DNA of 18,599 nucleotides from a virus. Its lineage: Duplodnaviria; Heunggongvirae; Uroviricota; Caudoviricetes. The notes under the pieces were generated by a model. That model was not told the DNA's origin. It worked only from the letters and a program-made list of their open reading frames with translations, and did not search any database. Each line of letters starts with the position of its first letter. Within the stretch, counting starts at the first letter, position 1. This document shows, piece by piece, positions 2,716 through 6,362 of the stretch. Where the stretch lies: the IMG/VR virus record IMGVR_UViG_2547132252_000005, positions 1-18,599 of that record. One strand, given 5' to 3'. The position numbers and the translations under genes were made by a program.

Positions 2716-3405
2716 CTATCCATGCTTCCTATACGTCTGCGGCATGCTCCCAATAACTTTCCCGAAGATAAACACCCGGTTCATCTCGTCTTTCTCGATT
2801 GGGTCCCACGGTGAGTAGCTCTTGTTATCAGAGATAACCAGCAGTTTATCCTTCATCATTTGCAGGCGCTTTACATGGGCTGTGTCGTCGTACAGAAACG
2901 CATAGATACCATCACCGTCGAAAGATTTAACCGTGATATCAACGAACAGCAGATCACCAGGTTCAATCGTTCCTGACATGCTGTCACCGCGTACGTTAAT
3001 GATGCGGATATTTTCTGCCTTCCTGCCATCGAACATGTGACGAGCATCGTCAAACGAGTACTCAACCGAGCGTAGGACTTCTACAAACTCACGGTTGATG
3101 ACACCCGGCCCGGCACTCACTTCTATATCAAGAACGTCAATCTTAAAGTATTTGGAATGGCTGACAGTTGGTTGTATTGGTTGCACTGTACTGTCTGACA
3201 TATTTCCAACGCCAGAAGATAACCATTCTGCGCGCACACCCAAAGCGTTCGCGATCTCCACGATTTTAGTTGTTTGATTAGCTTTCCCTGTTTCGATTTT
3301 CTGAATAGCAGCTTGGCTAACCCCGACCAAATCCCCAAGCGCCTTTTGTGTAAGGCCTCGCGCTAATCTGGCTTCTTTAAGTCTTTCTGAGAGTGTTGTT
3401 TTCAT
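2716..3405 (-). CDS. cI: CI-type prophage repressor (N-terminal HTH, C-terminal LexA/S24 autopeptidase domain)
   Basis: 229 aa. N-terminal HTH (LTQKALGDLVGVSQAAIQKIETGK), a GDSM serine motif and a downstream KRL lysine typical of S24 self-cleaving repressors. Divergent from a cro-like gene across an operator region. Confidence 0.88.
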   Translation of the reverse strand: MKTTLSERLKEARLARGLTQKALGDLVGVSQAAIQKIETGKANQTTKIVEIANALGVRAEWLSSGVGNMSDSTVQPIQPTVSHSKYFKIDVLDIEVSAGPGVINREFVEVLRSVEYSFDDARHMFDGRKAENIRIINVRGDSMSGTIEPGDLLFVDITVKSFDGDGIYAFLYDDTAHVKRLQMMKDKLLVISDNKSYSPWDPIEKDEMNRVFIFGKVIGSMPQTYRKHG

Positions 3406-3509
3406 AGTTCAAATGTACAACCAAGGTTTTATTCCATCAAACGAAAATGGTTGTTGACTAAAAACAACCATAGTTTTAATCTTGATTCAAATTAACCACG
3501 GAGGTTGTT
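3406..3509. promoter_or_regulatory. OR region with divergent pRM/pR promoters and operator palindromes
   Basis: Near-perfect 25-bp palindrome ATGGTTGTTgactaaaAACAACCAT (3447..3471) enclosing TTGACT (3454-3459), with a TAATCT -10 candidate near 3477-3482. Further half-sites ACAACCA (about 3416-3422) and GGTTGTT (3503-3509). GGAGG sits 5 nt before the cro ATG; no SD before cI, suggesting a leaderless cI mRNA as in lambda. Confidence 0.6.
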
Positions 3510-3740
3510 ATGAACCCAGCTATTAAAACAGCGATCAATATCGTTGGTTCACAAAAGAAACTGGGCGCTGCTTGCGAAGTTTCACAGCAGGCCGTCTATA
3601 AGTGGCTTCACAACAAAGCAAAGGTATCCCCTGAACATGTCGGCAGCATTGTTACGGCTACTGGTGGAGTAGTGAAGGCACACCAGATTCGCCCGGATCT
3701 TCCGAAGTTGTTTCCACACACCGAAAAGAACGCAGCTTAA
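3510..3740 (+). CDS. cro: Cro-like HTH regulator (YdaS-like)
   Basis: 76 aa, first rightward gene at OR, with an HTH (KKLGAACEVSQQAVYKWLH) and a good RBS. Confidence 0.8.
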   Translation: MNPAIKTAINIVGSQKKLGAACEVSQQAVYKWLHNKAKVSPEHVGSIVTATGGVVKAHQIRPDLPKLFPHTEKNAA

Positions 3741-3809
3741 ATTTCCATTTCACGCTCTTTAACAATAAGCAATCAACTTAACAGTCAATTCAAACTAAAG
3801 GAGTCAATT

Positions 3810-4349
3810 ATGCAACCACTTACATACCAACAGACTAGCGGATTTAGCCCGACTGCGGTGATAAATCGTTCTCAAACAAAACAGGTGCCAGGCCACGAAA
3901 AAATCCGTGATGCCGTCCGCGCCTGGTCGGCTGAAGATAATCAGGATGTCGTTGCCACACTCATTGTGAATGAGTATCGGGAGCAGGGCGGCGGCACCAT
4001 CGATTTCCCTGATGATGTCAGCCGTGCACGCCAGAAGCTGTTCCGCTTCCTCGATAACAAATTCGATTCTGAAAAATACCGAAATAACGTGCGTGAACTG
4101 ACCCCGGCAATTCTGGCGGTACTACCGCTGGAATATCGCGGTTACCTGGTTGAGCAGGATAGCTTTATGGCTAGGTTGGCTGAAATGGAAAAGGAACTCA
4201 GTGAGGCAAAACAGGCTGTCATTCTCAACGCACCACGCCACCAGAAACTGAAGGAAATTAGTGAAGGTATTGTGTCGATGTTTCGTGTGGACCCAGATCT
4301 GGCTGGTCCACTGATGGCGATGGTCACCACCATGCTGGGGGCAATATGA
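3810..4349 (+). CDS. YdaT-family protein (CII-like regulator of Rac-type immunity regions)
   Basis: 179 aa. Motifs NEYREQGGGTIDFPDD and LTPAILAVLPLEYR parallel E. coli YdaT (EEYLRQGGGELPLVPG ... LIPAILAILPRELR) as I recall it. Sits in the cII position after cro. Confidence 0.7.
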   Translation: MQPLTYQQTSGFSPTAVINRSQTKQVPGHEKIRDAVRAWSAEDNQDVVATLIVNEYREQGGGTIDFPDDVSRARQKLFRFLDNKFDSEKYRNNVRELTPAILAVLPLEYRGYLVEQDSFMARLAEMEKELSEAKQAVILNAPRHQKLKEISEGIVSMFRVDPDLAGPLMAMVTTMLGAI

Positions 4350-5365
4350 CAGGTTCAGAAATGGCGAAAGCCGGTCTGCTGGAACAGAACCGACTTTCAG
4401 GTGCAAATCGTAACGCACTCATTGCGGGAGGAATTATGGCAAACACTGCTGAGATATTCAATTTTCCAGTGCCGGATGTGGCACAAAAGGAGCCGCGCGT
4501 GGCAGATCTCGATGATGGTTATACGCGCATTGCAAATGAGTTGCTGGAAGCTGTGATGCTGGCCGGATTAACACAGCACCAGCTTCTGGTCTTCCTGGCT
4601 GTCATGCGCAAAACATATGGCTTTAATAAAAAACTGGATTGGGTGAGCAACGAGCAACTTTCCGAATTGACCGGGATATTGCCGCACAAGTGTTCTGCTG
4701 CAAAAAGCGTTCTGGTAAAGCGTGGGATTCTTATTCAGAGCGGGCGGAATACCGGCATTAATAATGTGGTCAGTGAATGGTCAACATTACCCGAATCAGG
4801 TAAGAAAAATAAAGTTTACCTGAAAGAGGTAAATTTACCTGAATCAGGTAAAAAAAGTTTACCCAAATCAGGTAAAGACGTTTACCCGAATCAGGTAAAC
4901 ACAAAAGACAAAATAACAAAAGACAATATAAAACCTTATTCGTCCGAGAATTCTGGCGAATCCTCTGACCAGCCAGAAAACGACCTTCCTGTGGTGAAAC
5001 CGGATGCTGCGATTCAGAGCGGCAGCAAGTGGGGGACAGCAGAAGACCTGACCGCCGCAGAGTGGATGTTTGACATGGTGAAGACCATCGCGCCATCAGC
5101 CAGAAAACCGAATTTTGCAGGGTGGGCTAACGATATCCGCCTGATGCGTGAACGTGACGGACGTAACCACCGCGACATGTGCGTGCTGTTCCGCTGGGCA
5201 TGCCAGGACAACTTCTGGTCCGGTAACGTGCTAAGTCCGGCCAAACTCCGTGACAAGTGGACCCAACTCGAAATCAACCGTAACAAGCAACAGGCTGGAG
5301 TGACAGCCGGAAAATCAAAACTGGACCTGACAAACACTGACTGGATTTATGGGGTGGATTTATGA
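4346..5365 (+). CDS. O: Replication initiator O (lambdoid O-family); start codon ambiguous (4346, 4361 or the MANTAEIF Met)
   Basis: The N-terminal region (YTRIANELLEAVMLAGLTQHQLLVFLAVMRKTYGFNKK) resembles the lambda O DNA-binding domain. The gene contains the iteron array and is followed by a lambda-P homolog. Its ATG overlaps the upstream stop (ATATGA). Confidence 0.8.
   Translation: MTGSEMAKAGLLEQNRLSGANRNALIAGGIMANTAEIFNFPVPDVAQKEPRVADLDDGYTRIANELLEAVMLAGLTQHQLLVFLAVMRKTYGFNKKLDWVSNEQLSELTGILPHKCSAAKSVLVKRGILIQSGRNTGINNVVSEWSTLPESGKKNKVYLKEVNLPESGKKSLPKSGKDVYPNQVNTKDKITKDNIKPYSSENSGESSDQPENDLPVVKPDAAIQSGSKWGTAEDLTAAEWMFDMVKTIAPSARKPNFAGWANDIRLMRERDGRNHRDMCVLFRWACQDNFWSGNVLSPAKLRDKWTQLEINRNKQQAGVTAGKSKLDLTNTDWIYGVDL
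4787..4898. repeat. Replication origin: five direct 17-bp iterons (TTACCYRAATCAGGTAA type) inside O
   Basis: Iterons at about 4787, 4816, 4835, 4859 and 4882, each with internal dyad symmetry (TTACC...GGTAA), followed by an A+T-rich stretch (4899..4935). The layout is that of lambda ori within O. Confidence 0.75.
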
Positions 5366-6063
5366 AAAACATCGCCGCACAAATGGTTAACTTTGACTGT
5401 GAGCAGATGCGCCGGATCGCCAACAACATGCCGGAACAGTACGACGAAAAGCCACAGGTACAGCAGGTAGCGCAGATCATCAACGGTGTGTTCAGGCAGT
5501 TACTGGCAACTTTCCCGGCGAGCCTGGCTAACCGTGACCAGAATGAACTGAACGAAATCCGCCGCCAGTGGGTTCTGGCTTTCCGGGAAAACGGGATCAC
5601 CACAATGGAACAGGTTAACGCAGGAATGCGCGTAGCCCGTCGGCAGAATCGACCATTCCTGCCATCACCCGGGCAGTTTGTGGCCTGGTGCCGGGAAGAA
5701 GCATCCGTTAACGCCGGGCTGCCAAACGTCAGCGAGCTGGTTGATATGGTTTACGAGTATTGCCGGAAGCGTGGCCTGTATCCGGATGCAGAGTCTTATC
5801 CGTGGAAATCGAACGCGCATTACTGGTTGGTTACCAACTTGTACCAGAACATGCGGGCCAATGCGCTGACTGACGCGGAATTACGGCGCAAGGCTGCCGA
5901 TGAACTGACCTGTATGACAGCGCGAATTAACCGTGGTGAGACGATACCTGAACCAGTAAAACAACTTCCTGTTATGGGCGGTAGACCTCTAAATCGTGCA
6001 CAGGCTCTGGCGAAGATCGCAGAAATTAAAGCTAAGTTCGGACTGAAAGGAGCAAGTGTATGA
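5362..6063 (+). CDS. P: Replication protein P (DnaB helicase loader)
   Basis: 233 aa, essentially collinear with lambda P as I recall it (MKNIAAQMVNFD...AKFGLKGASV). Start overlaps the O stop. Confidence 0.92.
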   Translation: MKNIAAQMVNFDCEQMRRIANNMPEQYDEKPQVQQVAQIINGVFRQLLATFPASLANRDQNELNEIRRQWVLAFRENGITTMEQVNAGMRVARRQNRPFLPSPGQFVAWCREEASVNAGLPNVSELVDMVYEYCRKRGLYPDAESYPWKSNAHYWLVTNLYQNMRANALTDAELRRKAADELTCMTARINRGETIPEPVKQLPVMGGRPLNRAQALAKIAEIKAKFGLKGASV

Positions 6064-6362
6064 CGGGCAAAGAGGCAATTATTCATTACCTGGGGACGCA
6101 TAAGAGCTTCTGTGCACAGGACGTTGCCGCGGTAACAGGCGCAACCGTAACCAGCATAAATCAGGCTGCGGCTAAAATGGCGCGGGCAGGAATCCTGGTC
6201 GTTGATGGTAAGGTCTGGCGAACGGTGTATTACCGGTTCGCTACCAGAGAAGAACGGGAAGGAAAGGTGAGCACGAATCTGATTTTTAAGGAGTGTCGCC
6301 AGAGTGCCGCGATGAAACGGGTATTGAGGGTATATAAAAGAACATCAATGGGTACACAATGA
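6060..6362 (+). CDS. ren: Ren protein
   Basis: 100 aa; MTGKEAIIHYLGTH...VWRTVYYRFATREEREGK matches lambda Ren from memory. Overlaps the P stop. Confidence 0.88.
   Translation: MTGKEAIIHYLGTHKSFCAQDVAAVTGATVTSINQAAAKMARAGILVVDGKVWRTVYYRFATREEREGKVSTNLIFKECRQSAAMKRVLRVYKRTSMGTQ

Follow-up and report, generated by a model that had tools for sequence, protein, structure and literature searches.

The window (the whole stretch of 18,599 nucleotides analyzed here) carries an O-type replication initiator gene at positions 4436 to 5365 on the plus strand, which encodes 309 amino acids from the ATG at 4436 and matches Pfam family PF04492 (Phage_rep_O; E = 1.9e-34, residues 21 to 115). RefSeq and phage records list a 339-residue O that starts at the in-frame ATG at 4346. 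The O homologues in lambda, P22, and Klebsiella begin at the residue equivalent to 4436, and a GGAGG lies 5 nt upstream of this codon; the start given in the database records is probably 30 codons too far upstream. The P gene is directly downstream (5362 to 6063, plus strand), with the O stop and the P start overlapping in an ATGA at 5362 to 5365. It is intact and encodes a lambda-type DnaB helicase loader of 233 amino acids (Phage_lambda_P, PF06992; E = 5e-62), 226 of which (97%) are identical to lambda P. A ren-like gene follows (6060 to 6362, plus strand), which is annotated as Ren in related records and forms the end of a lambda-like block, and downstream of ren lies a DLP12-like nin region with RusA and the Q antiterminator at its end. 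Upstream of O are an S24/HTH repressor gene (2716 to 3405, minus strand), a YdaS/Cro-like gene, and a YdaT-like gene at the cII position. Together, these genes make up the immunity and replication region of a prophage of the lambdoid type. A promoter-like site on the minus strand (4433 to 4461; TTGAAT-17-CATAAT with TG) sits at the position of lambda pO, and, judged by this position, an oop-like antisense RNA could possibly arise from it. No Rfam family overlapped the origin or the start of O. The promoter-like site faces a stable hairpin region at 4335 to 4430 (fold z = -3.4).

Between the N- and C-terminal domains of O, at nt 352 to 463 of the gene, lie five dyad-symmetric 17-mers of the form TTACC-N7-GGTAA, which start at 4787, 4816, 4835, 4859, and 4882; there are no others in the 18.6-kb window. 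Iteron 1 (4787 to 4803; TTACCCGAATCAGGTAA) is an extra upstream copy, 29 bp ahead of iteron 2 (4816 to 4832; TTACCTGAAAGAGGTAA), which has a degenerate center. Iteron 3 (4835 to 4851; TTACCTGAATCAGGTAA) is a perfect 8-1-8 palindrome, followed by iteron 4 (4859 to 4875; TTACCCAAATCAGGTAA) and by iteron 5 (4882 to 4898), which has the same letters as iteron 1. From iteron 1 to iteron 5, the start-to-start spacing is 29, 19, 24, and 23 bp, and the dyad symmetry amounts to 7, 6, 8, 6, and 7 of 8 pairs, respectively. When the whole window was searched for TTACCYRAATCAGGTAA at up to 3 mismatches, these five sites were the only matches. Given that the sites are palindromic, each was matched on both strands, and the resulting 10 strand matches compare with 0.13 expected, a count that 0 of 200 shuffles reached. 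An independent repeat finder recovered the same five sites. The mismatch search, the repeat finder, and the dyad counts all agree with the preliminary description of this locus, which had reported five internally palindromic 17-bp iterons at 19- to 29-bp spacing, although iteron 2 departs from the consensus it gave at 2 positions. The same description had proposed that the iterons create an in-frame peptide repeat, LPESGKK. This is correct for iterons 1, 3, and 4, which are the only copies in the O reading frame (LPESGKK, LPESGKK, and LPKSGKD), but iterons 2 and 5 lie in another frame (VYLKEVN and VYPNQVN). The occurrence of the iterons in two reading frames marks them as a DNA-level repeat rather than a peptide repeat, and selection thus acts on the DNA. 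A peptide-repeat explanation was rejected on these mixed reading frames.

The A+T-rich element that had been described after the iterons was confirmed at 4899 to 4938 (plus strand), where the GC content is 0.225, within the lowest 2.2% of 40-nt windows, and where the top strand is 65% A and 12.5% T. This strand-asymmetric stretch, a putative DNA-unwinding element, opens with the conserved ACACAAAAGACA and contains a 15-bp tandem repeat, ACAAAAGACAAWATA. It is followed by the origin right arm (4939 to 4975, plus strand; TTCGTCCGAGAATTCTGGCGAATCCTCTGACCAGCC), which carries an imperfect GTCCGAG/CTCTGAC inverted repeat and whose sequence (TTCGTCCGAGAATTCTGGCGAATCCTCTGACC) is near-identical in lambda and largely conserved in phi80. 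The A+T-rich stretch is also a mosaic junction with lambda-like DNA. A sliding DNA comparison against lambda placed the boundary at about 4899 to 4935, with identities of at most 0.68 on the left and of 0.85 to 1.00, mostly at least 0.93, on the right, so that the boundary coincides with the last iteron and the A+T-rich stretch. Across 4900 to 4960, identity climbs to at least 0.85 to 0.93. The lambda-like block covers the O C-terminal domain, P, and ren up to about 6340, where identity drops, and includes a dip to 0.77 to 0.80 within P at about 5864 to 5953. Aligned domain by domain, O (68% identical to lambda O overall) shows approximately 48% identity to lambda in its N-terminal domain and approximately 97 to 98% in its linker and C-terminal domain (4939 to 5365, plus strand), which by analogy would be the domain that interacts with P; to phi80 O, its overall identity is 41%. 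These values, together with the Pfam matches of O and P and the near-identity of P to its lambda counterpart, are in line with the earlier claims that the repeats lie inside O with a lambda-type P next to it and that the O N terminus differs from that of lambda while P is lambda-like.

The N-terminal origin-binding domain of O (4436 to 4786, plus strand) is predicted to be a winged helix. Over its 117 residues, identity is 59% to P22 gp18 and 82% to a Klebsiella phage, as opposed to the lower lambda value given above. Searches with the single sequence and with a 64-sequence profile found no solved relative of this domain by sequence, the sole match (E = 2.1) being noise. A single-sequence AlphaFold2 model was discarded at a pLDDT of 42.8, and a model of O residues 1 to 120 built from a 40-sequence alignment was used instead (mean pLDDT of 78, with values above 90 for most of residues 40 to 110). 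In this model, a helix at residues 47 to 59 and a short strand are followed by helices at 72 to 79 and 83 to 95 and a beta hairpin at 99 to 108. The best PDB fold matches were the winged helices of CRP/FNR, MarR, and IclR, which were weak (E = 5e-3 or worse) and were used for fold class only, and the assignment of residues 83 to 95 (LPHKCSAAKS...) as the recognition helix is a prediction from the model and these weak fold matches. Residues 84 and 85, which lie at the N-terminal end of this putative recognition helix, are the only alignment columns that are conserved within, and different between, the six larger iteron classes described below. The helix starts with HKCSAAK in the window, TKCSTAK in the P22 type, THVCxAK in the TTAGCC class, QKVNKAK in the TGTCACC class, QNVNKAK in the GTCTCT class, and KRCNEAK in lambda.

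The preliminary description had expected a modular split in which the O N terminus covaries with the iterons and the C terminus with P. We examined this across a panel of 80 loci with relatives of the O N-terminal domain (from GTDB genomes) plus lambda, P22, phi80, and one Klebsiella phage, with statistics calculated on 64 nonredundant O-like genes. A de novo repeat search in each panel gene nearly always found 3 to 9 dyad-symmetric repeats at approximately nt 350 to 450. The iteron classes in the panel were TTACCCGAATCAGGTAA (the window), TTTACCGAATCGGTAAA (P22), TTTACTGAATCTGTAAA, TTAGCCAAATCAGCTAA, TGTCACCAAAACAGTGA, GTCTCTAAGTTAGAGAC, TTCCCCGAAACAGGGAA (phi80-like), and ATCCCTCAAAACGAGGG (lambda), and the genes downstream of O encoded lambda P, DnaB-like helicases, IstB/DnaC-like AAA+ proteins, a 627-residue Toprim+DnaB_C protein, or a DUF6475 protein. 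Mantel tests on the 64 genes correlated iteron similarity with N-terminal identity (r = 0.66) rather than with C-terminal identity (r = 0.12), and shared partner type with C-terminal identity (r = 0.51) rather than with N-terminal identity (r = 0.135). The adjusted Rand index was 0.67 between C-terminal cluster and partner and 0.004 between iteron class and partner (P = 0.41). When the iteron consensus sequences were clustered by single linkage with a cutoff of 14 matching positions out of 17, several classes were merged, and our conclusions accordingly draw on the Mantel tests, which need no threshold, and on classes assigned by hand from the arm motifs. Window-type iterons were paired with four partner families (lambda P, IstB/DnaC-like, Toprim+DnaB_C, and DUF6475), and lambda-type C-terminal domains and P were paired with at least four iteron classes. 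The Mantel and Rand results and these mixed pairings thus directly support the expected modular split. Every panel member with an N-terminal identity of at least 63% and a detectable array carries the iteron of the window, and at 62% identity the panel splits, with one locus (L019) having the iteron of the window and another (L016) that of the P22 type. Regardless of iteron class or partner, 59 of the 64 O genes carry the sequence CACAAAAGA after their last iteron.

Among the characterized origins, the locus shares with lambdoid O-type origins a Phage_rep_O initiator, phased dyad iterons within the gene, and an A+T-rich stretch to their right, and it shares with lambda-type helicase loading a P-family gene directly downstream and a lambda-type O C-terminal domain. 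The lambda origin likewise lies inside O at the junction of the two domains, with dyad-symmetric iterons followed by ACACAAAAGACA, an A-rich stretch, and the right arm. Its four annotated iterons are spaced at 20/24/23 and are followed by ACACAAAAGACAC, compared with 19/24/23 for the last four iterons of the window, which are followed by ACACAAAAGACAA. Between the two, the DNA that encodes the O C-terminal domain, P, and ren is 93 to 100% identical. The lambda iteron (ATCCCTCAAAACGAGGGA) is different, however; it is present in four copies rather than the five of the window, and the two consensus sequences match at only 7 of 17 positions; with the divergence of the N-terminal domain and of its predicted helix start (KRCNEAK versus HKCSAAK), this places the window outside the lambda class. 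The phi80 gp15-gp14 origin similarly has four annotated gp15 sites inside the gene, a C-terminal domain and partner that are lambda-P-like, and a conserved right arm (TCGTCCGAGAATTCTGACGAATCCTCTGAC), but its iteron (TTCCCGAAAACGGGAA) has different arms and its O, as noted above, is divergent overall, so that the window does not belong to the phi80 class either.

The P22 gene 18-gene 12 origin is the closest characterized relative in both the N-terminal domain and the iteron. P22 iterons share the TTTACC arms and the GAATC center and occur in four copies at 20/24/23, followed by AACACAAAAGACAA. The P22 iteron (TTTACCGAATCGGTAAA) is nonetheless 2 bp shorter between its arms, so that the window's arms each lie 1 bp further from the dyad and only 12 of 17 positions match in register. 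The C-terminal domain of gp18 is unrelated, and its partner gp12 is a DnaB-like helicase, not a P-type loader. The window falls outside the P22 class as well. The Klebsiella phage ST11-VIM1phi8.2 and prophages of Enterobacter, Kluyvera, and Xenorhabdus have the same iteron class and N-terminal domains of 72 to 84% identity (79% by BLASTP for the Klebsiella phage), but their O C-terminal domain is unrelated and their loader is an IstB/DnaC-like AAA+ protein; in other relatives the partner is Toprim+DnaB_C or DUF6475. The O gene of the window is a natural mosaic, in which the N-terminal domain and the iterons form one specificity class, nearest to that of P22 and distinct from those of lambda and phi80, and in which a lambda-type block of O C-terminal domain, P, and ren is joined to the N-terminal half at the conserved ACACAAAAGACA/A+T-rich sequence.

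We tentatively propose, as an idea that we hold at somewhat less than even confidence, that the TTACC-N7-GGTAA iterons and an O winged helix starting at H84-K85 constitute a never-characterized specificity class that is functionally orthogonal to those of lambda, phi80, and P22 and that arose from a P22-type site by a shift of each half-site 1 bp away from the dyad. The strongest rival to our reading of the locus is that there is no separate class, in that O would cross-react with P22-type iterons (TTTACC-GAATC-GGTAAA), making the locus, in functional terms, an origin of the P22 type joined by recombination to lambda P. The P22 gp18 N-terminal domain is, after all, the closest characterized relative at 59% identity, and the TTTACC/GGTAAA arms and the GAATC center are common to both iterons. 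We nevertheless consider this unlikely: the extra base pair per side gives sites of 17 to 19 bp rather than 15 to 17 bp, the two iteron forms were never mixed within one array in the panel, and they segregate with H84 versus T84 at the predicted start of the recognition helix.

Array size is variable within the window's iteron class, ranging from 4 to 9 copies. Most relatives have four iterons at 19/24/23, the first of which likewise has a degenerate AAAAA or AAAGA center. The extra copy 29 bp upstream is found in the window, in several Enterobacter and Klebsiella loci, and in Pseudocitrobacter, and is absent from the four-iteron relatives. A Kluyvera locus (L006) has 9 iterons, with the 29+19-bp spacing (48 bp, or 16 codons) repeated three times, and this array looks like a tandem expansion. 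Across 71 iteron copies from 14 loci of the class, the arms T1 to C5 and G13 to A17 are approximately 99% conserved, a figure that is inflated because the copies were picked by consensus similarity, and positions 6, 7, and 10 to 12 vary. Iterons beyond a four-site core, with a correspondingly longer O linker, also occur in the Stx phages 933W and P27, where, unlike in the window, the iterons are lambda type in sequence (PMC7466680). These phages have six iterons, of which only four are strongly bound in vitro and two extras are needed for plasmid establishment in vivo (PMC7466680). Such extra sites lend some support to a second rival, in which the O-bound sites serve mainly for control (titration or handcuffing, exclusion of related phages, or autoregulation) rather than initiation, with the extra iteron 1 being regulatory only. 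The plasticity of array size, including the 48-bp spacing units of the Kluyvera array, and the inhibition of rep-lambda phages by ectopic ori-lambda copies (PMC3349717) point the same way. However, the four-iteron core keeps the lambda spacing and an adjacent unwinding element, the signature of an initiating array, and any control role would add to initiation rather than replace it, so that we regard this reading as very improbable.

Slimmer still is the chance that the repeats are a mere coding repeat for a flexible peptide linker, with the real origin elsewhere or the prophage no longer replicating. In favor of this reading, the repeats encode a low-complexity Lys/Ser/Pro-rich linker with LPESGKK-like units, some O-like genes (L007 and L010) are without iterons at the equivalent position, and an insertion sequence disrupts P in a prophage that is otherwise identical. 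Against it, two of the five copies encode unrelated peptides in a different frame, the copies are dyad symmetric, their arms are near-invariant across genera while the coding DNA around them shares only about 80% identity, their position, spacing, and neighboring A+T-rich motif match the experimentally defined ori-lambda, and their sequence covaries with the DNA-binding domain. On the anatomy, the homology, the mosaic boundary, and the covariation over 64 genes that we observed, we consider it very likely that positions 4787 to 4975 are the vegetative replication origin of a lambdoid prophage, with ori-lambda architecture and embedded in O. O binding, unwinding, and P/DnaB recruitment at this origin are inferred by homology with lambda. 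Indirect evidence for iteron binding by the O N-terminal domain and for firing of the origin in vivo comes from the covariation of this domain with the iterons and from the presence of the module in plaque-forming phages. Dimers of the O N-terminal winged helix would bind the TTACC-N7-GGTAA iterons, the core being the four sites at 19/24/23 with one further site 29 bp upstream, and the bound dimers would wrap the DNA into an O-some and destabilize the A-rich stretch at 4899 to 4938. The lambda-identical O C-terminal domain would then recruit the P-DnaB complex, from which host chaperones would release DnaB to start replication; the background to the O-some, melting, P-DnaB recruitment, and chaperone release is provided by earlier work (PMC6022878, PMC7466680).

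The preliminary description had also called the specificity of the origin new, and here our results do not agree. The iteron does differ from the lambda, phi80, and P22 iterons, but the module that carries it is already widespread. The O-P block is 96 to 98% identical in at least 15 sequenced phages, among them 4A7, Lambda_4C10, Perceval, Turner, and the PhiR series, and in carriers that include the Escherichia phages 4A7, Lambda_4C10, Perceval, and PhiR70_1 and an O157:H7 prophage, O, the iterons, and P are 96 to 100% identical to the window. Phages of the PhiR series are plaque forming and were grown on E. coli C or K-12. The O N-terminal/iteron block (at least 80% coverage) was detected in 2296 of 5426 complete E. 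coli genomes (approximately 40%), the exact O protein on at least 1000 contigs, and the exact iteron 17-mer, among the matches listed, in more than 120 IMG/VR contigs. The 90%-identity cluster of the protein, named "replication protein (O)," has 7825 members. Outside Escherichia, the iteron class was found in Klebsiella, Enterobacter, Kluyvera, Pantoea, Xenorhabdus, Providencia, and Arsenophonus. An identical O N-terminal/iteron block is located in a prophage of O157:H7 EC4115 beside mlrA (yehV), where P is split by IS1203, and some copies of the module thus reside in defective prophages. In the carrier records that we inspected, "replication protein O" was annotated and the origin and iterons were not, and the searchable literature contained no occurrence of the iteron sequence and no report of experimental binding or origin firing for this iteron class.

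A further candidate for the identity of the module is the origin of phage 82, a lambdoid origin with type-specific repeats in which the O N terminus is unlike that of lambda and the C-terminal half is lambda-like. The phage 82 origin was reportedly described by Grosschedl and Hobom in 1979 and by Moore, Denniston and Blattner in 1981, and Furth and Yates in 1978 are said to have found its C-terminal half homologous enough for lambda-82 hybrid O proteins (cited in PMC6022878). The module of the window may be this classical origin, in which case it would have been known since about 1980.

In summary, the module of the window is a real, conventional lambdoid origin and, within the O/iteron family, a very common one. 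Its value for discovery is small. It ranks among the most common replication modules of E. coli prophages, O157:H7 included. Its iteron class helps to predict which coresident prophages or lambdoid-origin plasmids can draw on the same initiators or compete for them. In the 64-gene panel, iteron class, recognition-helix residues, and loader type form a natural matrix that could guide specificity swaps. If the orthogonal class that we tentatively propose is real, it would offer a two-residue code for retargeting O proteins, and the orthogonality would let several lambdoid prophages replicate in one O157:H7 cell without cross talk.

In this lambdoid prophage, the genes at the cro and cII positions (3510-4349) encode a YdaS-like HTH protein and a YdaT-like protein of the type found in the Rac prophage, in place of lambda-type Cro and CII. 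The repressor/cro intergenic region contains a palindrome with a 9-bp stem (3447-3471) that includes the sequence TTGACT, and this palindrome is likely an operator or promoter element.

In RefSeq and phage records, translation of O is annotated to start at the ATG at 4346, giving a protein of 339 aa whose reading frame overlaps the stop codon of the YdaT-like gene. The alignment with the lambda, P22, and Klebsiella homologues begins at the ATG at 4436, and a GGAGG is located 5 nt 5' of this codon. The start codon given in the records probably lies 30 codons too far 5', or both starts are in use. On the minus strand near the O start (region 4335-4461), there is a promoter-like site (TTGAAT-17-CATAAT with TG, 4461->4433) at a position equal to that of lambda pO, and the RNA 3' of this site is predicted by folding to form a stable hairpin (z = -3.4). 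This region could encode an oop-like antisense RNA that spans the YdaT-like/O junction.

Within the nin region, the segment 7018-10367 encodes a YbcK-like large serine recombinase of 508 aa together with a PEBP protein similar to YbcL and an AraC regulator similar to YbcM, an arrangement also found in the cryptic prophage DLP12. Downstream of the Q antiterminator, three tRNA genes are followed by two sRNAs (12951-13567), namely STnc100 (13312-13505) and the anti-GcvB sRNA AgvB (13506-13567, minus strand); the tRNAs are annotated as Ile, Arg, and Arg in the matching prophage of E. coli O157:H7 EC4115. This block has the gene arrangement of Stx-type phage late regions, but stx genes are absent 3' of it within the window. 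In the lysis region, an IS3-family element with two ORFs and an rve integrase domain (17352-18565) is inserted directly after the lysozyme gene and carries an ALIL frameshift pseudoknot (17633-17749).

Among the loci collected for relatives of the O N-domain, L052 to L064 contain exact lambda O genes on contigs that are either approximately 48.4 kb long or tiny; the assemblies are labeled Pseudomonas, Shewanella, Neobacillus, Oceanobacillus, Bradyrhizobium, Ruminococcus, Leeuwenhoekiella, and others. These are most likely public assemblies contaminated with lambda control DNA.

Two further loci carry O-like genes in Enterobacter sichuanensis (L007:3001-4122) and Klebsiella grimontii (L010:3001-4104). 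Their N-domains are 70-76% identical to that of the window O, and the exact position of the iteron array is occupied by a T5orf172 (GIY-YIG-like) domain of approximately 90 aa (Pfam E 7e-8). Window-class iterons are absent within 3 kb on each side of both genes, and the A+T-rich stretch ACACAAAAGACA is retained directly 3' of the T5orf172 domain.

Immediately 3' of the last iteron, 59 of the 64 O-like genes in our nonredundant panel carry the motif (A/C)CACAAAAGACA, regardless of the class of iteron, the type of C-terminal domain, or the helicase partner. In the window, this motif lies at the mosaic junction where lambda-like DNA meets non-lambda DNA. The motif may play a double role, both belonging to the unwinding element and providing a homology patch for recombination between modules.
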